DNA of 64,000 nt from Alphaproteobacteria bacterium (GTDB lineage: Bacteria > Pseudomonadota > Alphaproteobacteria > DATDPM01): NCBI GenBank assembly GCA_041479345.1, contig JBGOXX010000001.1, forward strand, positions 1,209-65,208. The letters run 5' to 3'. The notes under the pieces were generated by a model. It was given only the letters and a program-made list of their open reading frames with translations, was not told the origin of the DNA and searched no databases. Of the stretch, positions 1,554-12,265 are shown piece by piece (position 1 is the stretch's first letter; each line of letters begins with the position of its first letter). Both the position numbers and the translations under genes were made by a program.

Positions 1554-2579
1554 GTGACACTAGCGGATGACGCTGCGTATCCGGTTTTGGTCGAGGTCAG
1601 CCGCGGCGCAATGGTCGAAAGCCGTCACCGCGGCGCCGTAGCAGTCGTCGAATCCTCGGGATCATTGGTCCTCGGCAAAGGCGTCGTCGGCACGGAAATC
1701 TTTCCGCGCTCGGCCATCAAGCCGCTTCAGGCATTGCTGCTGATCGAAAGCGGTGCTGCCGACCGCTTCGGCATCACCCCGGAAGAGATCGCCCTGGCCT
1801 GCGCCAGCCACACCGGTGAGCCAAGGCATCTTTCGCTCATTGAACGCTGGCTGACGAAAATTGGTTGCAGCGCCGCCGATCTCGAATGCGGTCCGGAGCC
1901 GCCGCGGACCCCCGAAGATTTGCGCAACATGGTGCGAGACGGGGGCAAACCAACCCCGCTTCACAATAATTGCTCGGGCAAGCATGCCGGGTTCTTGACC
2001 GTCGCCAAACATCTCGGCGTGCCGACACGGGGGTACATTGAATACGATCATCCCGTGCAGCAGTATCTTCGCAAGATTCTCTCGGAAGTGTTTGAAACCG
2101 ATCTCGAAAGAGCCCCGCGCGGAATCGATGGCTGCGGCATCCCGGTCTTGGCAGTCCGGCTGGATAGACTGGCGCGCGGAATGGCCAGACTTGCCGATCC
2201 GTCGCTGGAACCCGAAAAGCGCCAGGCGGCAATGCTGCGAATTCGGCAAGCAATGGCGGCCCACCCTTTCCTGGTCGCCGGGACCGGCCGGTTCACGACC
2301 GCCGTGACCGAAATCACCAAGGACCGCGCGCTCCTGAAGGGCGGAGCGGAGGGCGTTTTTTGCGCGGCATTGCCGCAGCAAAAACTCGGGATCGCGATCA
2401 AGATCGAGGATGGTGCCGGCCGCGCCGCGGAGGTCGCGGCGGGCGCGTTGCTGCTGCGCTTTGGCGCGATTGGCGAGGCCGAAGCCGCGGCTCTCGCCAA
2501 TGTTTTAGAGCCCAGGATCGTCAATTGGGCGGGGGCGGTAGTGGGACAGATTCGCCCCGCCGAAAACCTGAGAGCCTAA
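1554..2579 (+). CDS. asparaginase family protein (L-asparaginase II-like, PF06089-type)
   Basis: GTG start at 1554. The HNNCSGKHAGFL motif and overall length of about 340 aa are typical of the Rhizobium-type asparaginase family. Confidence 0.8.
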   Translation: MTLADDAAYPVLVEVSRGAMVESRHRGAVAVVESSGSLVLGKGVVGTEIFPRSAIKPLQALLLIESGAADRFGITPEEIALACASHTGEPRHLSLIERWLTKIGCSAADLECGPEPPRTPEDLRNMVRDGGKPTPLHNNCSGKHAGFLTVAKHLGVPTRGYIEYDHPVQQYLRKILSEVFETDLERAPRGIDGCGIPVLAVRLDRLARGMARLADPSLEPEKRQAAMLRIRQAMAAHPFLVAGTGRFTTAVTEITKDRALLKGGAEGVFCAALPQQKLGIAIKIEDGAGRAAEVAAGALLLRFGAIGEAEAAALANVLEPRIVNWAGAVVGQIRPAENLRA

Positions 2580-2603
2580 CCAAGCCGCACAAAACGTTGA
2601 GTC

Positions 2604-4067
2604 ATGCAGTATCCCAAAGGCTTGCCAGGCGAAAGCGAACCCGGCAGAGTGCCGCCTATGTCCGATCAGGCGGCAGCTGGATTCTTCGGCCGAACCCGAA
2701 GCGCCTTCGTCAATACCTGGCGCGACATTTTGGGCGCGGCCAAACACAAGCTTTCGGGCGCCGTCCATCCCGACCTGCCGCCGGACGATCTCGACCGCCT
2801 GCGCCAGCAGATCGAGGAGTGCTTGACCGCCCGCGGCGGCGAGGTTTCGGCACGGGCGCGGGCCGCCGATCTGGGCACCACCTATCTTGGCTTAAACGAT
2901 GCGGGCCGTATCCGTTTTCTCGGGCTTCTGGCCCGCGACTACGGCTTCGACCGGCGGATGGTGGAAACTACCATCGCCAATCTGCACAAAGCACCGGATG
3001 CATCGCGCTATGCCGCCGCCGCCGGCGAATTGCGCCAGGCCTTGGTTCCGCTGCGGCTGAAGTTATTGCGTCAGTTCAGCGCGTTGGGGGAGGGAATTAA
3101 ATTTCTCTCTGATCTTCGTGCGGACGTCATGCGTTACGCCAAATCCGATCCGACCCTGGTTTCCCTGGACGCCGAACTTAGAGACCTTCTGGCCTCCTGG
3201 TTCGATATTGGGTTCCTGGATCTGCGGCGCATCACTTGGGATTCGCCGGCAGCCCTTCTCGAAAAGCTCATCGACTACGAGGCGGTGCATGAGATCCAGT
3301 CTTGGGCGGACCTTAAGAACCGGCTCGATTCGGACCGGCGCTGCTATGCCTTCTTTCATCCCCGGATGCCGAATGAGCCCCTGATCTTTATCGAGGTCGC
3401 TCTGGTTTCCGGAATGGCGGACAATGTCCAGACCTTGCTCGATGAATTGGCGCCTCACCAGGACCCGAAGACCGCCGACAGCGCCATCTTCTATTCGATC
3501 TCGAATGCCCAAAAAGGTCTGGCCGGGGTGAGCTTCGGGGGCTTTCTCATCAAGCGGGTGGTGGACGATCTCGCCCATGATTTTCCAAACCTCAAGATCT
3601 TCGCGACCCTGTCGCCAATCCCAGGCTTCAGAGCTTGGCTTGAAGAGCAAATCGGCGTCGACCGGCCGGTATTGGCGATGCCGGAAGCCCATGACATCGC
3701 TCACGCCCTTGGCACCGAAAACGCGGATACGGCGCTTCTCGACCTGTTATGCCAACCCGGCTGGGCCGAGGATCCGGAAAAAGCGGAGATCATACGGCCG
3801 GTCCTGCTGCGGCTTTGTGCCCGCTATCTCCTGGTCGAGAAAAGGGGAAGCCAGCCGCTCGACCCGGTGGCCCGTTTCCATCTGAGCAATGGCGCGCGGG
3901 TGGAGCGGCTCAACTGGCTGGCCGACAAGTCGCCTAGGGGCCTTCGCCAATCTGCCGGCATCATGGTGAATTACCGGTACAAGCTCGAAGAGATCGAGGC
4001 CAATCATGAGGCTTATACCGGCGAGGGCCGGATCGCCGCGGCACCTGGCGTCCGCGGCCTGCTCTAG
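2604..4067 (+). CDS. malonyl-CoA decarboxylase (MCD family)
   Basis: About 470-487 aa with MCD-family regions (FFHPRMPNEPLIFIEVAL, SFGGFLIKRVV, FATLSPIPGFRAWL). An alternative start lies at 2658 (MSDQAAAGFF). Confidence 0.85.
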   Translation: MQYPKGLPGESEPGRVPPMSDQAAAGFFGRTRSAFVNTWRDILGAAKHKLSGAVHPDLPPDDLDRLRQQIEECLTARGGEVSARARAADLGTTYLGLNDAGRIRFLGLLARDYGFDRRMVETTIANLHKAPDASRYAAAAGELRQALVPLRLKLLRQFSALGEGIKFLSDLRADVMRYAKSDPTLVSLDAELRDLLASWFDIGFLDLRRITWDSPAALLEKLIDYEAVHEIQSWADLKNRLDSDRRCYAFFHPRMPNEPLIFIEVALVSGMADNVQTLLDELAPHQDPKTADSAIFYSISNAQKGLAGVSFGGFLIKRVVDDLAHDFPNLKIFATLSPIPGFRAWLEEQIGVDRPVLAMPEAHDIAHALGTENADTALLDLLCQPGWAEDPEKAEIIRPVLLRLCARYLLVEKRGSQPLDPVARFHLSNGARVERLNWLADKSPRGLRQSAGIMVNYRYKLEEIEANHEAYTGEGRIAAAPGVRGLL

Positions 4068-4100
4068 CCCCTGTCTAGCCGGGGCGCCTAAATCCAAGCC

Positions 4101-4598
4101 TCAAGCCCCGCGGGCTTCGAGCACTTTGTCTTCGGTCCGGATGCGGAACCACAGCACCACCGCGTTGAGGATCGAGAAAACCACCGCGATTTTCCACGCA
4201 CCCAGAATGAGCGGCGCAACCGCAATCTCGGCCACGACCACCACGTAATTGGGATGGCGGATGAATCGGTACGGCCCGCGTTTGACCAAAGGCGCGCCCG
4301 GCAGAGTGACGATTCGTGCACACCAATACCGGCCAAGACTGGCCATCACCCAAATCCGGAAGGCGAGCAGGGCAAGATAAAGGAACAGAAAGCGGAAATG
4401 GATGAAGGCTTCGGCCGGAATCAGAAACGCCATCGCCGCCAGCCAGCCCGCGTGAACGGCAATAATCCACGCATAGACCGGCTCATCGATGACCAGCGCC
4501 CCCTGCGCAACGAGACGCTGGAGATTGCGCCGGGAATAGATCAACTCGGCCAATCGCTGGAGAACGAGAAACCCCACGACGACGATATGCGGATTCAT
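4101..4598 (-). CDS. isoprenylcysteine carboxyl methyltransferase (ICMT/PEMT) family membrane methyltransferase
   Basis: Multi-TM protein with the RHPNY motif and a downstream conserved acidic residue (FIRHPNYVVVVAEIA). Its start codon overlaps the PKS stop by 1 nt at 4598. Confidence 0.8.
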   Translation of the reverse strand: MNPHIVVVGFLVLQRLAELIYSRRNLQRLVAQGALVIDEPVYAWIIAVHAGWLAAMAFLIPAEAFIHFRFLFLYLALLAFRIWVMASLGRYWCARIVTLPGAPLVKRGPYRFIRHPNYVVVVAEIAVAPLILGAWKIAVVFSILNAVVLWFRIRTEDKVLEARGA

Positions 4599-5638
4599 CA
4601 GGCGGTTCCCAAAACCAGGAACCCGGCGGTGAACCCGGGACCGAGCGACGACATCAGCTTTCGACCGCCAAGCGCCGCATCCAGCGTACGCCGCAGGACG
4701 AACATGATGGTTGCCGCCGACATATTTCCGAAGTCGCGCAACACGTCGCGGCCGAGAATCATGCCTCCGGGAGCGAGACCAAAGGCCTCTTCCAAAGCGT
4801 CGATCACCTTGGCGCCGCCGGGATGACAGACGAAATTGGCGATATCGGACAGCGCCAGCTTATGGCCGGACAGAAAGTTCTCCGCGGCAGCCCGCAGATC
4901 CGAACGGACCAAGGCCGGAATATTTCGGGAGAACACGACGCCAAGGCCGTCGTCCTCCACCTCCCAGCCCATGACATCGAGGGAATCGGGCCAGCAATAC
5001 TCGCCCCAGGCGGAAATTTCCGGGCCGTCGCCCTCGCAACTGACAATCGCCGCGGCGGCACCGTCACCAAACAAGGCGGTGGCAATGATGTTGCTTTTCG
5101 ATTGATCGGCGCGCCGGAAGGTGAGGGAACACAATTCGACCACGAGATAGAGAATTTTATGTTGGGGCGCGGCTTTCGCCATTGCCGCCGCCCGGGCCAA
5201 ACCGAGGACGCCGCCGGCGCAGCCGAGGCCAAATACCGGCAACCGCCAGACATCGCGCCGCATTCCCATGCGTTCCATGATCAGGGCATCGAGGCTGGGA
5301 GTCGCAATCCCGGTGGTGGACACGGCGACGATCCCATCGATGTCCTCAACGGCGAGACCGGTTTGGTCCAGGACCTGACGCGCCGCGCGTTCGAGAAGAT
5401 CGACGGCGTTCTCGAGGAAAAGCCGGTTCTTCTCCCCCCAGCCATGGGGCTTCTCGTACCAGTCGAGGGGGACGCAGGAATACCGGCACTCGATGCCGGC
5501 ATTGCCGTATATCCCCATCATGCGCTCGATCTCGCTCGAATTGTGGGCGAAGACCCGTCTGACGCGGGCCATCACGTCGGACTGAGTCATACGATAGCGC
5601 GGGACGACAGTGGTCAGGCCAAGCAAATGGGGGGTCAT
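4598..5638 (-). CDS. type III polyketide synthase (chalcone/stilbene synthase family)
   Basis: The catalytic triad context is present: Cys in FGLGCAGGV, His in FVCHPGGAKV, Asn in FGNMSAATIMF. Length is 346 aa. Confidence 0.9.
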   Translation of the reverse strand: MTPHLLGLTTVVPRYRMTQSDVMARVRRVFAHNSSEIERMMGIYGNAGIECRYSCVPLDWYEKPHGWGEKNRLFLENAVDLLERAARQVLDQTGLAVEDIDGIVAVSTTGIATPSLDALIMERMGMRRDVWRLPVFGLGCAGGVLGLARAAAMAKAAPQHKILYLVVELCSLTFRRADQSKSNIIATALFGDGAAAAIVSCEGDGPEISAWGEYCWPDSLDVMGWEVEDDGLGVVFSRNIPALVRSDLRAAAENFLSGHKLALSDIANFVCHPGGAKVIDALEEAFGLAPGGMILGRDVLRDFGNMSAATIMFVLRRTLDAALGGRKLMSSLGPGFTAGFLVLGTA

Positions 5639-5844
5639 CCGGGACTCCGGTTGGGGCAGCTCAATTTCGACGGCAAGGCCCAGATTGCCAGGAGTAGGGG
5701 GATTGCCAATGGCCCAGGCAGGCCTTCACGCTATTGTGACCTGCCGTCTCACCTTAATATTCCAAATATTCCAGGTTTTTGCGTTGCCGTTGCGCGGACG
5801 GCGAAGATCATGGTGTCATCCCGCCGGCAATAAATCGGGTTCTC

Positions 5845-6624
5845 ATGGCTAAATCCAAATCCAAGAAAAACAAACCACAGACCCAAGACTCGCTGCCTCT
5901 CGGAAACTCCGGTCCTGCCGGCCAGACAACCCCGCACCGCGGCGGCCTTGTAGGGCGGCTTCGCAACTATTTCCTCGCCGGGATCGTCGTCACGGCGCCT
6001 ATCGGCATTACCGCCTATCTGGTCTCGACTTTCGTCAGCATCGTCGACGGCTGGGTCACGCCGCTCATTCCCCCCCGTTATAGTCCCGAAACCTATCTGC
6101 CGTTCGGCATTCCTGGCTTCGGCCTGATTTGCGCCATCGTCGGCCTGATCTTGGTCGGCGCGCTGACCGCCAATGTGGTGGGACGGTTGTTGCTCCATGC
6201 CGGCGACAGGCTCATGGCCGCCATGCCGGTGGTGCGCGGCGTCTATGGTGCGGTCAAGCAATTGACCGAAACCGTGCTCGGCAAGCAATCCGCCGCCTTT
6301 CGCGAGGTGGTGCTGCTCGAATATCCGCGCCGGGGCATTTGGAGTCTCGGCTTCATCACCGGGATCACCGAAGGCGAGATTCAGGATCTGACCGAGGACG
6401 AGGTATTGAACGTCTTCGTGCCGACAACGCCCAATCCGACTTCGGGTTTCCTCCTCTTCGTGCCGCGGCGCGAACTGGTCGTTCTCGACATGTCGGTGGA
6501 AGAAGGGATCAAGATGGTCATCTCGGGTGGAATCGTAACGCCCCCCGACCGCCGTTCGGTCGAGAAGAAATCCCGTCAGCGCGGCCTTGCGGTTTCCCAT
6601 GAAGGCGGCAGCGGCCAGTCTTGA
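5845..6624 (+). CDS. DUF502 family membrane protein
   Basis: RLRNYFLAGIVVTAPIGITAYLV followed by a conserved DUF502 core (PVVRGVYGAVKQL, GIWSLGFITG, TTPNPTSGFLLFVPR). ATG at 5845; the ORF track starts earlier at 5779. Confidence 0.7.
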   Translation: MAKSKSKKNKPQTQDSLPLGNSGPAGQTTPHRGGLVGRLRNYFLAGIVVTAPIGITAYLVSTFVSIVDGWVTPLIPPRYSPETYLPFGIPGFGLICAIVGLILVGALTANVVGRLLLHAGDRLMAAMPVVRGVYGAVKQLTETVLGKQSAAFREVVLLEYPRRGIWSLGFITGITEGEIQDLTEDEVLNVFVPTTPNPTSGFLLFVPRRELVVLDMSVEEGIKMVISGGIVTPPDRRSVEKKSRQRGLAVSHEGGSGQS

Positions 6625-6634
6625 TCGGAAACAC

Positions 6635-7867
6635 TCATTCATATCGCAAGGCTTCGATCGGAAGAAGATGCGAGGCTTTGCGTGCCGGATAGAACCCGAA
6701 AAAGATTCCGACCGCCGCCGAGAACCCGACCGCAAGGAAAATGGCTTCGCCCCTAAGCTGAGTTTGCCAGCCTGCCCAATGGCCGATGGCTAGCGAGGCC
6801 GCTGCACCAAGCACAATGCCGGCCGCGCCGCCGACCAGGGAAAGCGTCGTTGCTTCAACCAGAAACTGGCTCAGGATTTCTTTGCCTCGGGCGCCGACCG
6901 CCATTCGCAACCCGATCTCCCGCGTCCGCTCGGTGACCGAGACCAGCATGATGTTCATGATTCCGATGCCGCCCACGACCAGCGATACCGAGGCGATGGC
7001 GGCCAGCAACATCGTCAAGGCGCGGGAAGAGGCCTGCTGCGCTTCCAAAATCTCGGAAAGATTGCGCAGCCAGAAGTCATCGTCTTGGCCGGGCTGAATT
7101 CGGTGCCGCTGGCGCAGCAGCAACTGAATCTGTTTCTGCGTCGCTTCGAGGTCGACGCCATTTTCCATTTTCACAAGTATAGCGCCGACGGCCCGGCGGT
7201 TTGCCTCGCTCGCCCCAAGAACCCGATTGCGCGCGGTGGTCAGCGGCATGATGACCACGTCATCCTGGTCCTGGCCTTGGAGGCTCTGGCCCTTGCGGTC
7301 GAGGATGCCGATGATGGTGAACGGAACCTTCTTGACCCGGATCATCTTTCCGACCGGATCGGTATCGCCGAAAAGCGTGTGCGCCGTGGTCTGGCCGAGC
7401 AAGGCGACTTTCGCCGCCTTTTCCAACTCGGCGTGTCCGAAGGGACGCCCCTCCACCACATCCCATTCCCGAGCCACGAAAAAATCGGGCGTCGTTCCGA
7501 ATACGACCGTTGACCAGTTGATGTCGCCATAGATGACTTGCGCGGCGCCGCGCATGCCGGGTGCGGCCACCCGGGTGCCGAACACATCGCGTTGGATGGC
7601 CAGCGCATCGTCTTCGGACAGCGTCAACTGGGTGCCGAAGCCGAGCCGAACGCCGCCGGAGGTAATGGCCCCGGACACGACGATGATGAGATTGGACCCG
7701 AGCGTGCGGATCTGGTCGGCAACCTGGGATTCGGCGCCCGATCCGACCGCAATCATCGTAATCACCGAACCAACACCGATCACGATCCCGAGCATGGTGA
7801 GCGTGCTCCGCAAGACGTTGAGCCGGAGTGCTTCCAGGGCGATGCGAATGCTGGCGAGAAGATTCAT
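6635..7867 (-). CDS. ABC transporter permease, FtsX/MacB-type (periplasmic domain plus 4 TM)
   Basis: N-terminal TM, a large periplasmic domain and a C-terminal FtsX-like TM bundle. The start overlaps the ATPase stop with an ATGA motif at 7864-7867. Confidence 0.85.
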   Translation of the reverse strand: MNLLASIRIALEALRLNVLRSTLTMLGIVIGVGSVITMIAVGSGAESQVADQIRTLGSNLIIVVSGAITSGGVRLGFGTQLTLSEDDALAIQRDVFGTRVAAPGMRGAAQVIYGDINWSTVVFGTTPDFFVAREWDVVEGRPFGHAELEKAAKVALLGQTTAHTLFGDTDPVGKMIRVKKVPFTIIGILDRKGQSLQGQDQDDVVIMPLTTARNRVLGASEANRRAVGAILVKMENGVDLEATQKQIQLLLRQRHRIQPGQDDDFWLRNLSEILEAQQASSRALTMLLAAIASVSLVVGGIGIMNIMLVSVTERTREIGLRMAVGARGKEILSQFLVEATTLSLVGGAAGIVLGAAASLAIGHWAGWQTQLRGEAIFLAVGFSAAVGIFFGFYPARKASHLLPIEALRYE

Positions 7868-8610
7868 GCCGCCGAACCGATGGATGAGAGCCGCGACAAG
7901 ACCTCGGCGGCGCGCCGCGGCGAGGGAACCGGGTTGTCGTTCACCAACCGGCCGTCCCGGAAACTCAAGATGCGGCGGGTAAAGGCCGCGACATCGGCCT
8001 CGTGGGTGACGACGACGACGGTGATGCCCTTGTCGTTCAATTGCTGGAACAGGCCCATGACTTCGACGCTGGTGCGGGAATCGAGAGCCCCGGTCGGTTC
8101 ATCCGCCAAAATCAGGATCGGATCGTTGGCGAGCGCCCGGGCGATCGCCACGCGCTGCTGCTCGCCGCCGGAAAGCTGCGACGGCTGATGATAAGCGCGT
8201 TCGGCGAGACCCACTTCCCGCAGCCGAGCCAAGGCTTTCGCCCGTCTGACGGCCGACGGGACGCCGGCGTAAATCAACGGCAGCTCGACATTTTCGATCG
8301 CCGTCATCCGCGGCAGAAGATTGAAATGCTGAAAGACGAAGCCGATCCGCCGATTGCGGATTCGGGCCAAAGCATCGCCGTCGAGTCGCGAAACATCTTC
8401 TCCGGCGAGAAAGTAACGGCCCGCCGTCGGGCTATCGAGACAGCCGAGAAGATTCATGAAGGTGGATTTGCCGGAGCCCGACGGCCCCATGATGGCAACC
8501 AACTCGCCCGGATCTATTTTGACCGAGACGTCGCGGACCGCAAGCAGCGGCCGATCGCCCATCCGGTATTCCTTGAAAAGATTGTCGGTCTCGATCAGCG
8601 GTCCGGCCAT
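7864..8610 (-). CDS. ABC transporter ATP-binding protein (MacB-like ATPase)
   Basis: Walker A GPSGSGKST, signature LSGGEQQRVAIARAL, Walker B ILILADEPTGALD. ATG at 8610 (MAGPLIETDNLFKEY) lies 1 nt after the adaptor stop; the ORF track extends spuriously to 8733. Confidence 0.9.
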   Translation of the reverse strand: MAGPLIETDNLFKEYRMGDRPLLAVRDVSVKIDPGELVAIMGPSGSGKSTFMNLLGCLDSPTAGRYFLAGEDVSRLDGDALARIRNRRIGFVFQHFNLLPRMTAIENVELPLIYAGVPSAVRRAKALARLREVGLAERAYHQPSQLSGGEQQRVAIARALANDPILILADEPTGALDSRTSVEVMGLFQQLNDKGITVVVVTHEADVAAFTRRILSFRDGRLVNDNPVPSPRRAAEVLSRLSSIGSAA

Positions 8611-8611
8611 C

Positions 8612-10153
8612 TTAGAACCTTGGGCCGCCAAATCCGGGCAGGGAATTGGACGCGTTTGCAGCGCCCGATGGTATTTCGCCGATGACCAGTTGTTGGCCTT
8701 CCTTAAGATCTCCGTCGGCAATCTCCGTGGCATTGCCGTCGGTAATGCCGAGCTTGACCGCGACCGGTTTTACGGCGCCTACGGAATCGATCGCATAAAC
8801 CTGGGGGCTTTTCGCAGCGTTCGCATCCTTGGCCGCCTGCAATTGGCCGTAGCGCAAGGCGCCATTCGGCACCAATAGGGCATTGTCCCTTTTCGCCGTC
8901 ACGACGCGAACATTTGCCGTAAGACCGGGCAAGAGAAGCAAATCGGGATTCGGCGCCGAAATCACCACATCGTAAGTCACGACGTTTTGCACCACCTGAG
9001 GCGCCTTGCGGACCTGAACGACATTACCTTCGAAGGTGATGTCGGGATGGGCATCGACGGTGAAGAAGACTTTTTGGCCGTCTTTGATGGCGCCCACATC
9101 CGCTTCGTCGATCGAGGCATCGACCTGCATCGCCCGAAGGTCTTGGGCGATGGTGAAGAGGACGGGGGCCTGGAGGCTGGCCGCCACCGTCTGGCCGACA
9201 TCGACATTGCGCAAGATCACCGTGCCGTCGACTGGTGCTCGGATATAGGTGTGGTCGAGATCGACTTGGGCAGCGCGCTCGGCCGCTTCTTTTTGCGCGA
9301 CTTGGGCCTGCGCCGTCTCCACATTCGCCGCCGCCGTTCGAATTTGGGCTTCGGCCGAGCGGATCGCCGCGCTCTGGCTCAATTCGAGGGCCTCGGTGCT
9401 TCCCAATTCGGCCTGGGCTTGGTCGAAGACGGACTGGGCCTTGTCTCTATCGGCGAGCGTTCCAGCGCCCGTTTGGGACAGCTTCAGTTTCCGGTCGTAA
9501 TCGCGGGTGGCATCGACCAGAGCTGCTTTCGCCTTGGCCTTTTGCGCCCCCGCAGAGACATGGTTGGAGCGGGTCGATTCCAGATCCGCCTGCGCGCGCT
9601 CAAGGCTGGCTTGCTGCATCGAGACCGACGCTTTGGCGACCGCAACATCGGCTTGCGCCTGGGCGAGCCGGGTTTCGAACGTATCCGGATCGATTCGGGC
9701 GATAAGTTGGCCTTTGGTCACCTCGGTGTTGAAATCGGCGTCGAGCTCCTTGATCTGGCCCGAAACCTGGGAACCGACCTGAACCGTGATCACCGCATTG
9801 ACCGTTCCCGAGGCAATGACCGTCGCCGTGACCGGCCCGCGCGTCGCGGCGCCCATCCGATAAGTAGGCGCGGCAGCCGGAGCGACCCAATGCCGGTAGC
9901 CAAACCAGGCCACGGCAACAATCGATATGGCTACGAGGCCAACCCAAACGACCCGTCGGCGGAGTTGGGAAGATCCAGCAAGAGATTTTCCGGCCGCGGC
10001 ATCGGAGGCCGCACCATCAGATGAGGGTGGCGTTGGCTTTAAATCCGGAGCAAGGCTCATCGCGGCTCGGTCGTTCATGGGGCCATGGCCTTTATATGGG
10101 GTGCAGCAGGAGTAATGCATAGTAACGCGTAACGCCGCTTTGACCTGGGTCAA
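8612..10153 (-). CDS. HlyD-family periplasmic adaptor subunit (MacA/DevB-like)
   Basis: Single N-terminal TM (VVWVGLVAISIVAVAWFGY), a long Ala/Gln-rich coiled coil, and beta-barrel/lipoyl-like segments. The start is uncertain (alternative M at 10078). Confidence 0.8.
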   Translation of the reverse strand: MTQVKAALRVTMHYSCCTPYKGHGPMNDRAAMSLAPDLKPTPPSSDGAASDAAAGKSLAGSSQLRRRVVWVGLVAISIVAVAWFGYRHWVAPAAAPTYRMGAATRGPVTATVIASGTVNAVITVQVGSQVSGQIKELDADFNTEVTKGQLIARIDPDTFETRLAQAQADVAVAKASVSMQQASLERAQADLESTRSNHVSAGAQKAKAKAALVDATRDYDRKLKLSQTGAGTLADRDKAQSVFDQAQAELGSTEALELSQSAAIRSAEAQIRTAAANVETAQAQVAQKEAAERAAQVDLDHTYIRAPVDGTVILRNVDVGQTVAASLQAPVLFTIAQDLRAMQVDASIDEADVGAIKDGQKVFFTVDAHPDITFEGNVVQVRKAPQVVQNVVTYDVVISAPNPDLLLLPGLTANVRVVTAKRDNALLVPNGALRYGQLQAAKDANAAKSPQVYAIDSVGAVKPVAVKLGITDGNATEIADGDLKEGQQLVIGEIPSGAANASNSLPGFGGPRF

Positions 10154-10171
10154 GCTGGTGCGAGCCGGTAC

Positions 10172-12265
10172 TCAGCCCGAGTGCAGGGTCGCGATTACCG
10201 CGTCCCGCTCGAAGAGGTAAAGAAGGATGCGGAGGGCATCTCCCCGCCCGGACGAAAGTTCCGGATCACGGTTCAAGATAAGCTCGGCGTCGTCGCGGGC
10301 GGCGGCGAGCAGAATTTCGTGGCGGGCAATATCGGCGAGCTGGAATTCGGGCAGACCGCTTTGCCGGGTTCCGAGCAATTCGCCCGCACCCCGGAGCCGC
10401 AAGTCCTCTTCGGCGATCCGAAAGCCGTCATCGGTCTCGCGCAGAATCGAAAGACGGGCCCGCGCGTTCTCGGTCAAGGGCGGCGCATAGAGCAGAAGAC
10501 ACGTCGATGGCCGGTCCGATCGCCCGACGCGGCCGCGCAGTTGATGAAGCTGAGCCAGGCCGAACCGTTCCGCATGTTCGATCACCATGACGGTGGCCTC
10601 GGGCACATCGACGCCGACTTCGATCACCGTGGTCGCGACCAGAATATCGAGATCGCCGGCCGCGAAGGCGGCCATGGCTTTGTCTTTGTCCACGCCTTTC
10701 ATCCGGCCGTGAACGAGACCGACTCGCGCACCGAACCGTTTGGCGAGTGCGGCATGGCGTTCTTCGGCCGCCGCCAGATCGAGCGCTTCGGATTCGGCCA
10801 CCAGCGGACAGACCCAATAGACCCGCGCCTGATTCGCGATCGCCCGGGCGACTGCCGCAATCACTTCTTCCAAGCGTTCCAGCGGAAGGGCCCGAGTATC
10901 GATCGGTTTGCGTCCGGCCGGTTTTTCGGTCAGGCGCGAGACATCGAGATCGCCATAGACCGTCAGCATCATGGTGCGCGGAATGGGGGTCGCGGTCATC
11001 ACCAGCACATCCGCACCTTCCGCCCCGCTGGCCCCTTTTTCCGCCAGCGCCAGCCGTTGGTGCACGCCGAAGCGGTGTTGCTCATCGACGACGGCGAGCG
11101 CCAGATCGGCGAATTCCACGTCTTCTTGAAAGAGCGCGTGGGTGCCGACGGCAAGCTTCACCTCGCCGCTTTTCAGTCCGTCGTAGATGGCACTTCTAGC
11201 CTTGCCTTTCTCGCGGCCGGTCAGCAACGCCACCGAAACCCCGGCCGCAGTCGCCAAAGATTCGATCGTCTTCATATGCTGGCGGGCGAGGATTTCGGTC
11301 GGCGCCATCAGGGCTGCTTGGTGGCCCGCTTCGACCGCCGTCAGCATGGCCAGGAATGCCACGACGGTTTTGCCGCTGCCGACGTCGCCTTGAAGCAGGC
11401 GAAGCATGCGGGTGGGGGCCGCCATATCGCGGCGAATTTCCTCCAAGCTTTGCGTTTGCGAAGCGGTCAGCTGAAAGGGCAGGGCCGCCAATACTCGGCC
11501 GCTCAAATGGCCATCGCCGGCAATACTGCGGCCCGGCAATTTTCGCTGACGCGCTCGGATCATCGCCAGCGCCAATTGGTTGGCGAGAAGCTCGTCATAG
11601 GCCAAGCGCGAGCGCGGGTCTGTGCCGGGATCGAGATCCGAATCGCTTTGCGGGGCGTGAGCCATGCTGAGGCTTTCCCGCCAGGATTTCCAGCTTCGAT
11701 CTTTCAGAAACGCCGGCTCGATCCATTCCGGCAGATCGGGTGCGCGCTCGATCGCCGCGCGAATAGCCTTCAGAAGCGGTTTGGCGGTCAAACCCGCGGT
11801 CATCGCGTAAACCGGCTCCACAATCTGGAGCCGGGAAAGTTCCGCCGGCGTGCCGATGTGATCCGGGTGGGTCATCTGCAGCGCCTCGCGGAAACGCTCG
11901 ATCTTTCCGCTGACCACCCGTTGCTCGCCAATGGGCAGCGCTTTGCGCAGGTAATCGTCGTGGCCATGGAAAAACACCAGGGTCAGCTCATCGCTGCCAT
12001 CGCTGACGCGCACTTTATAGGGGAGGCGGCGGTTGGGCGGCGGAATATGAGCCACCACCGTCACCGTCACGGTGGCGATCCGGTCCGGTTGCGCATCGGC
12101 TAGTTTGGGGGCATAGCGGCGGTCGATGATCCCGACCGGCAGGTGCCAGAGCAAATCGGCCACCCTCGGCCCCGTCAATTTTTCGACCAGCTTGGACAGC
12201 CGCGGGCCGATGCCGGGAAGGGCGGTCACCGGGGCGAAGAGGGGATTCAGGATCGGGGGGCGCAA
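10172..12265 (-). CDS. recG: ATP-dependent DNA helicase RecG
   Basis: Walker A GDVGSGKT, DEQHRFGV motif, length of about 697 aa, and an N-terminal wedge region. Confidence 0.95.
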   Translation of the reverse strand: MRPPILNPLFAPVTALPGIGPRLSKLVEKLTGPRVADLLWHLPVGIIDRRYAPKLADAQPDRIATVTVTVVAHIPPPNRRLPYKVRVSDGSDELTLVFFHGHDDYLRKALPIGEQRVVSGKIERFREALQMTHPDHIGTPAELSRLQIVEPVYAMTAGLTAKPLLKAIRAAIERAPDLPEWIEPAFLKDRSWKSWRESLSMAHAPQSDSDLDPGTDPRSRLAYDELLANQLALAMIRARQRKLPGRSIAGDGHLSGRVLAALPFQLTASQTQSLEEIRRDMAAPTRMLRLLQGDVGSGKTVVAFLAMLTAVEAGHQAALMAPTEILARQHMKTIESLATAAGVSVALLTGREKGKARSAIYDGLKSGEVKLAVGTHALFQEDVEFADLALAVVDEQHRFGVHQRLALAEKGASGAEGADVLVMTATPIPRTMMLTVYGDLDVSRLTEKPAGRKPIDTRALPLERLEEVIAAVARAIANQARVYWVCPLVAESEALDLAAAEERHAALAKRFGARVGLVHGRMKGVDKDKAMAAFAAGDLDILVATTVIEVGVDVPEATVMVIEHAERFGLAQLHQLRGRVGRSDRPSTCLLLYAPPLTENARARLSILRETDDGFRIAEEDLRLRGAGELLGTRQSGLPEFQLADIARHEILLAAARDDAELILNRDPELSSGRGDALRILLYLFERDAVIATLHSG

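Follow-up and report, generated by a model that had tools for sequence, protein, structure and literature searches.

A probable MacAB-type tripartite efflux pump at a variable junction next to a type III polyketide synthase block

Does a three-gene exporter encoded about 1 kb from a type III polyketide synthase (PKS) serve that synthase, or is the pump there for other reasons? We addressed this question for a cassette in a 64,000-nt stretch of alphaproteobacterial DNA (hereafter the window). The initial annotation had described a tightly coupled tripartite operon of the MacAB type, made up of an adaptor, an ABC ATPase and a separately encoded FtsX-type permease, and this description was supported. 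It had also proposed, marked as a hypothesis, that the operon exports the PKS-derived lipid, for which we found no comparative support, as the PKS is kept in relatives without the pump. We consider it probable that the cassette is genuine but unremarkable, a MacAB-type (type VII ABC) tripartite efflux pump encoded by a self-contained three-gene operon with no dedicated link to the PKS. The locus comprises the following features:

8612..10078, minus strand: MacA-like periplasmic adaptor (membrane fusion protein), 488 aa; start at 10078 as in gene callers
8608..8614, minus strand: adaptor stop TAA, one spacer base and ATPase ATG, read directly in the sequence
7864..8610, minus strand: ABC ATPase, nucleotide-binding half of a split MacB, 248 aa
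7864..7867, minus strand: ATGA overlap of ATPase stop and permease start, read directly in the sequence
6635..7867, minus strand: MacB-type permease, 410 aa; TM1, periplasmic domain of about 240 aa, TM2-TM4
10079..10171, minus strand: recG-adaptor spacer, 93 nt, with a 6-2-6 inverted repeat TTGACC-CA-GGTCAA at 10153-10140

The layout of the locus was largely as annotated. Both the 1-nt gap between adaptor and ATPase (TAA at 8614-8612, spacer base at 8611, ATG at 8610-8608) and the ATGA overlap between ATPase and permease are present. The cassette converges with a DUF502 gene, the permease stop (6637-6635) lying 10 nt from the DUF502 stop (6622-6624), recG (12265-10172) is located directly upstream of the adaptor on the same strand, and the type III PKS starts at 5638, 1.0 kb from the permease end. 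The extent of 6635-10153 holds for the cassette genes, except for its upper end: 10153 is the TTG of the longest open reading frame, whereas gene callers chose the ATG at 10078 on four independent contigs, giving the 488-aa adaptor. The adaptor N-terminus conserved in two related loci (L115 and L130) agrees with this start.

The three genes are real and not chance reading frames, as judged from their Pfam matches, their third-position GC, and the recurrence of their sizes and overlap in orthologues. Third-position GC is 0.69-0.75, similar to neighbouring genes, and the orthologues L131, L133, L135, L136 and L137 repeat the 248-aa and 410-aa sizes as well as the 4-nt overlap. Base composition showed no anomaly across the cassette (GC 0.616-0.619 vs 0.59-0.64 elsewhere). 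Scans of positions 5500-10400 returned no promoter-like site; none of the listed terminator-like sites fell in the recG-adaptor spacer and none was convincing in the intergenic spacers, a result that is neutral as to co-transcription with recG. Across the whole window, the only Rfam match was one tRNA, distant from the locus.

Protein family assignments place all three products with MacAB. The adaptor matched HlyD_D23 (2.7e-17) and HlyD_3 in Pfam and exceeded the NCBIfam cut-off for RND_mfp (158 bits, cut-off 94.9). Its best solved relatives are MacA structures (9qgy, 1.7e-34; 5nik, 2.1e-33), and it carries one hydrophobic segment, which serves as an N-terminal membrane anchor (residues 39-57, approximately), plus an alpha-hairpin of some 150 aa. 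The ATPase matched ABC_tran (2.8e-34), with the N-terminal half of MacB as its best NCBIfam model (profile positions 3-235, 277.9 bits) and all motifs present (Walker A GPSGSGKS, signature LSGGE, Walker B ILILADEP, H-loop THE). As is characteristic of a MacAB-type pump, the cognate MacA-like adaptor is encoded in the same operon as the ATPase. For the permease, the Pfam matches were MacB_PCD (5.1e-49, residues 21-248) and FtsX (2.4e-16, residues 290-401), and the best NCBIfam model was again MacB (268.1 bits); the alignment to residues 258-646 of E. coli MacB (5nik, 5.3e-65) covers both the transmembrane and the periplasmic parts. Hydrophobic segments at about 24-42, 286-304, 344-362 and 377-395 give the four-helix topology, with the large periplasmic domain between TM1 and TM2, that marks MacAB permeases. 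The split of ATPase and permease onto separate polypeptides is a recognised layout for MacB-type pumps (PMC5985334). The equivalog cut-offs for E. coli MacB (NF007826; 277.9 and 268.1 bits vs 966) and MacA (NF008606; 156.9 bits vs 342, NCBIfam) were both missed, and therefore macrolide specificity should not be assumed. The cassette is an uncharacterised member of a well-known pump family; relatives of the permease are already labelled ABC transporter permeases in database sources.

The initial annotation had called the architecture DevBCA/MacAB-like and had named a grouping with LolCDE or FtsEX as evidence against its proposal. We placed the cassette relative to DevCA, LolCDE and FtsEX by scores against curated family models. 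The MacAB part of the claim held, the likeness to DevBCA is one at superfamily level only, and the grouping with LolCDE or FtsEX did not occur. That the cassette is a housekeeping type VII ABC system (LolCDE in lipoprotein release or FtsEX in cell division) or a true DevBCA orthologue is thus extremely improbable. The shared superfamily accounts for partial matches of the ATPase to LolD (219.9-223.8 bits), FtsE (209.1) and DevA (184.5), but all are under their cut-offs (307.75-360, 264.85 and 295.8, respectively). The adaptor likewise stays below the DevB cut-off (64.2 bits, cut-off 129), the permease reaches only 42.2 bits against LolC/E (cut-off 362.45) and 22.4 bits against FtsX (cut-off 255), and no DevC model was listed for it even at E <= 10 in NCBIfam, a library that may hold none. 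Additionally, the cassette has one permease gene where LolCDE has a LolC/LolE pair, includes a MacA-like adaptor that LolCDE and FtsEX lack, and encodes a periplasmic domain of about 240 aa, compared with the small one in FtsEX. Its absence or deletion in close relatives is incompatible with an essential system.

The closest well-described counterpart is the E. coli MacAB-TolC macrolide/enterotoxin pump (5nik, 5nil), to which permease, ATPase and adaptor all align as MacB and MacA. Shared features are the four-helix permease, the MacB-type periplasmic domain and the adaptor encoded immediately upstream. As in E. coli, no gene for an outer-membrane duct was found with the pump, among the ten window ORFs of 400-530 aa scanned. 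The window's cassette differs in its separate, 4-nt-overlapping ATPase and permease genes (MacB is fused in E. coli), in scores below the MacB and MacA equivalog cut-offs, and in an adaptor hairpin about twice as long as that of E. coli MacA. Spr0693-0695 of S. pneumoniae (5xu1, matched by the window's permease at 9e-39 over residues 129-410) and YknXYZ of B. subtilis also combine separate ATPase and permease with an adaptor; however, they are Gram-positive systems without an outer-membrane duct, and their sequences are further removed than that of E. coli MacB. DevBCA-HgdD, the heterocyst glycolipid exporter of Anabaena, shares the three-gene split architecture and the type VII ABC superfamily (PMC5985334), but it is cyanobacterial, whereas the window is alphaproteobacterial by gene content; the window's proteins fall below the DevA and DevB cut-offs with no DevC model matched, and the conserved gene context of the cassette has no link to lipid synthesis genes.

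No outer-membrane factor gene was present among ten scanned window ORFs of 400-530 aa, nor beside the orthologues L135-L137. In E. coli, tolC is unlinked to macAB. Assembly into a tripartite complex with an outer-membrane duct is inferred here. By homology with the solved MacAB-TolC, transport would proceed as follows. A dimer of the four-helix permease, each subunit with its large periplasmic domain, would bind the separate ATPase, itself a dimer. Cytoplasmic ATP binding and hydrolysis would be transmitted mechanically through stalk helices to the periplasmic domains, which would squeeze substrate, taken up from either the periplasm or the inner membrane's outer leaflet, into a channel made by the membrane-anchored MacA-like adaptor. 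Substrate would then leave through a TolC-like duct encoded elsewhere in the genome. MacB-type pumps load from the periplasm, and crossing the inner membrane needs another transporter (PMC5985334).

We then compared the junction between recG and the DUF502-PKS-ICMT block across relatives. Many metagenomic relatives keep recG-DUF502-PKS-ICMT synteny with recG abutting DUF502 and no pump, among them eight PKS-centred metagenomic loci (L089, L098, L100-L104, L110). At L086 (PKS 78% identical), the recG end is 24 nt from the DUF502 end. In the near relative L115, the PKS is 94% identical over the 185 residues on its contig and the recG C-terminus 95%. There, adaptor codons 1-30 are fused in frame to permease codons 351-410 at GCGGCCGG (ORF 468-821), and alignment of L115 380-900 with the window revealed a 3,171-nt in-frame deletion of the cassette with the PKS retained. 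The window holds both copies of the 8-nt microhomology, as seen in the L115/window alignment:

9990..9997, minus strand: GCGGCCGG, upstream copy of the microhomology at the L115 deletion
6819..6826, minus strand: GCGGCCGG, downstream copy of the same microhomology

Their spacing of 3,171 nt keeps the deletion in frame. Further, a tree built from four flanking proteins places the pump-less L087 within lineages that carry the pump (bootstrap 81 and 87). At least three diverged lineages have the cassette next to the PKS block, namely the window, L131/L132 and L133/L134, the latter two pairs with permeases 82% identical to that of the window and recG 78-80%. Persistence of the cassette at this site fits selection; a single ancestral insertion inherited vertically explains it equally well.

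Outside this junction, cassette orthologues at 72-79% identity, some on Azospirillum secondary replicons, occupy three unrelated neighbourhoods. L135 (79%), Azospirillum brasilense CP059451 (76%) and Azospirillum sp. TSA2s CP039647 (74%) represent these different settings, which are without PKS, recG and DUF502. A further 80 homologous loci at greater distance, spread over many phyla, mostly keep the adaptor-ATPase-permease order, and recG, ICMT or DUF502 was found near the cassette in none of these 80. The cassette has been lost from the recG/DUF502 junction in related lineages, and its orthologues are located at unrelated sites in other genomes. It is accessory gene content; the junction where it sits, with recG on one side and the conserved DUF502-PKS-ICMT block on the other, is variable. 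A protein search returned relatives at 72-98% identity, Azospirillum included, with all 8,000 of 8,000 scored candidate clusters at E <= 1e-60. A pattern-based contig scan had missed the closer relatives: its matches did not exceed 65% identity, and the best came from Methylomirabilota and Burkholderiales; recent transfer from another phylum was dropped as an explanation once the protein search gave the 72-98% relatives.

These comparisons bear directly on the proposal that the pump exports or relocates, in the fashion of DevBCA, the phenolic lipid that the adjacent type III PKS and ICMT-family methyltransferase produce. In its favour, pumps of the MacB family are known to transport lipids and secondary metabolites, DevBCA glycolipids and pyoverdine being examples (PMC5985334), pump and PKS are 1 kb apart both in the window and in L131-L134, and the same junction holds a second, DrrAB-like exporter in L087, L115 and L130. 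Against this, L086 and the eight more distant loci conserve the PKS block but have no exporter there, the PKS was kept in L115 when the pump was deleted, and the pumps at 72-79% identity and the 80 more distant ones have no linked PKS or ICMT gene, with two Opitutaceae loci as the only exceptions. In these two, a distant PKS-like gene (26-27%) is found upstream of the cassette; NIF3-like and NusG-like genes intervene, and we treat the arrangement as coincidence. Pump and PKS also belong to different transcription units: they cannot share a transcript because the opposite-strand DUF502 gene separates them. The conserved co-occurrence across lineages expected of a dedicated PKS-linked exporter was not found, and the co-localisation traces to one clade and hence to approximately one evolutionary event. 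The pump was never observed beside recG in a genome lacking the PKS, a situation that the initial annotation had named as counter-evidence. We regard export of the PKS lipid by this pump as unlikely.

Pseudomonas PvdRT-OpmQ and the MacAB homologues of toxin clusters sit in biosynthetic operons with their own outer-membrane factor gene. The window's pump is different: it belongs to a separate transcription unit, no outer-membrane factor gene was found linked to it, and it is not conserved together with the PKS. Like these pumps, it belongs to the MacB family, whose members there expel a secondary metabolite from the periplasm (PMC5985334). Pumps of the PvdRT-OpmQ type are a precedent for the PKS-lipid export hypothesis.

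The pump thus appears to have no dedicated link to the PKS. Nothing seems to tie it specifically to the polyketide genes, and the DrrAB-like coupling described below may leave some room for a link. This is a negative result: closeness to the PKS reflects a single lineage-specific placement at a variable junction. Comparison of the relatives keeps the pump from being assigned a wrong function and the PKS cluster from being drawn with wrong boundaries. MacAB-type pumps with split ATPase and permease are common, and the cassette matters little as a discovery.

An exporter beside the PKS is common in this clade, as L130, L115 and L087 carry the DrrAB-like exporter there. In L130 it follows the cassette, with a start codon overlapping the permease stop, and in L115 and L087 it is kept next to DUF502 and the PKS. 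This raises the alternative that the MacAB-like cassette and the DrrAB-like pair once formed one five-gene, two-step route, of which the window retains only the second step: the DrrAB-like pair would take the compound out of the inner membrane, after which its expulsion from the periplasm would fall to the MacAB-like pump. The requirement of periplasm-loading MacB-type pumps for a separate inner-membrane transporter (PMC5985334) is consistent with such a route, as are the five genes on one strand in L130 with the DrrA-like ATG overlapping the permease stop, and an Ignavibacteriales locus (L024) in which a DrrAB-like pair, 57% and 53% identical to that of L115, lies 1.5 kb downstream of the cassette. 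However, the halves persist apart, as cassette only in the window, L131 and L133 and as DrrAB-like pair only in L087 and L115, which is unexpected of obligate partners; L086 has neither, and just one of the 80 distant loci pairs the two. We consider the two-step route very unlikely.

Taken to its full extent, the same idea would posit an ancestral, translationally coupled five-gene array beside DUF502-type III PKS-ICMT, intact in L130, in which a methylated phenolic lipid would be drawn out of the inner membrane by the DrrAB-like pair and then carried through the outer membrane by the MacAB-like pump; we give this very little credence. If true, it would give bacterial alkylresorcinol or alkylpyrone lipids their first dedicated route of envelope export, and the later reciprocal losses would reflect partial redundancy. 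That every PKS-bearing lineage keeps at least one exporter at the junction, a pattern from which redundancy would follow, is ruled out by L086, in which recG abuts DUF502. Loss of the DrrAB-like pair in the window's lineage is suggested by its phylogenetic distribution only. Where the window's permease ends, ATGAATGA might be taken for a remnant of a DrrA-like start codon; it also forms the permease's own Tyr-Glu-stop codons and is not independent evidence. It is the DUF502 membrane protein, rather than the pump, that is consistently found with the PKS/ICMT pair, and this protein is the more durable lead.

The pump is encoded on the minus strand, where the sequence read directly shows three tightly packed genes within 6635-10153.

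Features of the pump and PKS region
12265-10172, minus strand: recG, immediately upstream of the adaptor on the same strand
10078-8612, minus strand: adaptor, with its TAA stop at 8614-8612
8611, minus strand: single base between adaptor and ATPase
8610-7864, minus strand: ATPase, ATG beginning at 8610
7867-7864, minus strand: ATGA in which the ATPase ends and the permease begins
7867-6635, minus strand: permease, ending 10 nt from the stop (6624) of the convergent DUF502 gene
5845-6624, plus strand: DUF502 membrane protein, divergent to the PKS-ICMT pair (4101-5638, minus strand)
5638-4598, minus strand: type III PKS, beyond DUF502 seen from the pump
4598-4101, minus strand: ICMT-family methyltransferase, also beyond DUF502

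The 1-nt gap, the ATGA overlap, the convergence with DUF502 and the upstream recG described in the initial annotation all hold, but its upstream end was revised. Position 10153 is a TTG that opens the longest adaptor ORF. On four independent contigs the gene callers instead chose the ATG at 10078, which gives an adaptor of 488 aa and agrees with the N-terminus conserved among relatives. The recG-adaptor spacer contains a 6-2-6 inverted repeat, TTGACC-CA-GGTCAA (10140-10153, minus strand). The related contig L130 has an identical copy and L115 a degenerate one; the repeat may be an operator or have arisen by chance. Matches to the window come from MAG contigs GCA_041500845.1, GCA_041485765.1 and GCA_041491565.1 and from two JGI metagenomes. 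Its recG-sdhE-mfd genes, its pair of NtrC-type sigma-54 response regulators with trkA and hflX behind them, and its fused ispDF make up a gene content typical of Alphaproteobacteria.

Pfam assigned HlyD-family domains to the adaptor, ABC_tran to the 248-aa ATPase, and MacB_PCD (5.1e-49) and FtsX (2.4e-16) to the 410-aa permease. The proposed MacAB-like class is supported: among NCBIfam models, E. coli MacB scored highest with the ATPase (277.9 bits over profile positions 3-235) and again with the permease (268.1 bits over positions 258-646), and solved MacA and MacB structures were matched as well. The permease alignment to E. coli MacB (5.3e-65) covered both transmembrane and periplasmic parts, and MacA chains were the closest structural relatives of the adaptor (1.7e-34). 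The adaptor exceeded the RND_mfp subfamily cut-off and scored 156.9 bits with the MacA model. Since neither the MacB nor the MacA equivalog cut-off is reached, macrolide specificity should not be assumed. Walker A, signature, Walker B and H-loop motifs are all intact in the ATPase, the permease has the expected layout (one hydrophobic segment, ~240 periplasmic residues, three further segments), and the adaptor has a single N-terminal anchor. The adaptor alpha-hairpin spans ~150 residues (protein residues ~132-285; gene 8612-10078, minus strand), about twice the length of that of E. coli MacA, and the HMM and PDB matches to the adaptor are therefore split into two stretches. Separate ATPase and permease polypeptides are a recognised layout in the MacB family (PMC5985334). 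A protein search also returned a fused ATPase-permease of 661 aa (P0025), 75% identical to the window permease, so that, barring an artefact of gene calling, fused and split forms interconvert between close relatives.

Scores against curated family models served as a proxy for a tree with DevCA, LolCDE and FtsEX. The analogy to DevBCA, the heterocyst glycolipid exporter, stands at the superfamily level only, with DevA (184.5 bits, cut-off 295.8) and DevB (64.2, cut-off 129) below cut-off and no DevC model matched in this search. The pump does not belong with the housekeeping LolCDE or FtsEX systems, as every score fell below cut-off: LolD models 219.9-223.8 (cut-offs 307.75-360), LolC/E 42.2 (362), FtsE 209.1 (264.85) and FtsX 22.4 bits (255). 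We therefore place the pump with MacAB, a well-known family of which it is an uncharacterised new member. By homology its mechanism would be that of MacAB-TolC: ATP-powered motion of the periplasmic domains would push a substrate, taken from the periplasm or the outer leaflet, into the adaptor channel and out through an unlinked outer-membrane duct. A scan of ten window ORFs of 400-530 aa revealed no gene for an outer-membrane factor.

The initial annotation suggested, as a hypothesis, that the pump may export the PKS-derived lipid. Persistence of the cassette at the recG-DUF502 site in several lineages would fit such a dedicated role, as would the second exporter common to this junction. However, pump and PKS belong to different transcription units because the opposite-strand DUF502 intervenes, and the PKS is often found without the pump. 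PKS relatives are encoded in 44 metagenomic loci (L086-L129), and the order mfd, sdhE, recG, DUF502, PKS, ICMT is conserved wherever the flank is long enough. In L089, L098, L100-L104 and L110 the recG end lies at most 70 nt from DUF502 and the pump is absent; in L086 (PKS 78%, recG C-terminus 83%) only 24 nt separate the two gene ends. The consistent partner of the PKS is DUF502, not the pump. Almost all metagenomic loci with a PKS of 53% identity or more have DUF502 divergently paired with PKS-ICMT, including L091, where recG is 3.9 kb away. DUF502 is not beside PKS homologues of at most 49% identity (L117, L118, L120, L123), nor in L109 and L113. One relative (L106, 1111-2412) has two tandem DUF502 genes between recG and PKS.

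The decisive case is contig L115, which matches the window at 94% identity over the 185 PKS residues it carries and at 95% over the recG C-terminus. Following recG, an ORF (468-821) joins the first 30 adaptor codons to permease codons 351-410 at the octamer GCGGCCGG. In the window the two copies of this octamer (9997-9990 and 6826-6819) lie 3,171 nt from each other, a spacing that keeps the fusion in frame. A DrrAB-like ABC-2 pair, DUF502 and PKS follow. The L115 lineage thus formerly carried the cassette and lost 3,171 nt by microhomology deletion while retaining the PKS.

The DrrAB-like exporter (296.8 bits with the drrA model, 140.9 with drrB) is absent from the window. It lies at 814-2437 in L115 and, in place of the pump, at 7320-8970 in L087 (recG 82%). 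In L130 (permease 89%, recG 93%) it follows the pump in a five-gene array (2371-7001), the DrrA-like ATG overlapping the permease stop. L131/L132 and L133/L134 (permease 82%, recG 78-80%) are arranged as the window. Neighbour joining on Mfd, RecG, PKS and DUF502 (2,153 ungapped columns) gave (window,(L133,(L131,L087))) with bootstraps of 81 and 87, so that pump-less L087 nests among pump-bearing lineages. In the simplest reading, the recG-DUF502 junction of the clade ancestor contained both exporters, and independent losses followed. Pump loss, recorded directly in L115, probably also occurred in L087, and the DrrAB-like pair was presumably lost in the window, L131 and L133. For L086, most simply, both exporters were lost or neither was ever there. 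All these lineages have the DUF502-PKS-ICMT block wherever the sequence extends to it.

Pump orthologues elsewhere likewise give a dedicated role no support. Of 80 homologous loci from a wide range of phyla (42-65% identity), the majority have the adaptor-ATPase-permease order and none has recG, ICMT or DUF502 nearby. The cassettes of metagenomic contig L135 (79%), Azospirillum brasilense CP059451 (76%) and Azospirillum sp. TSA2s CP039647 (74%) share gene sizes and the 4-nt overlap exactly, in three unrelated neighbourhoods. Among cultured bacteria, the permease has its closest orthologues in Azospirillum; the Azospirillum copies lie on secondary replicons of 700-863 kb and are annotated simply as ABC transporter permease and ATP-binding protein. 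Comparative evidence thus gives no support to export of the PKS product, an unlikely but still possible role. The pump is a self-contained accessory cassette at a variable junction, and its proximity to the PKS reflects about one placement event inherited in one clade.

On the 863-kb replicon of A. brasilense (L136, 7786-16926), a P-type cation ATPase follows the cassette and an IS66 element lies ~3 kb downstream. In two Opitutaceae MAGs (L030, 3105-11218, and L051), a homologous pump has a distant type III PKS-like gene, of 26-27% identity, on its strand a few kb upstream. An FAD oxidoreductase precedes the PKS-like gene, and NIF3-like and NusG-like genes separate that gene from the pump. In the window, malonyl-CoA decarboxylase (2604-4067, plus strand) and asparaginase II (1554-2579, plus strand) come after the ICMT gene, as in L087, L088, L131 and L133; L112 has the decarboxylase only. 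It is curious that the PKS lies beside a decarboxylase that consumes its extender unit.
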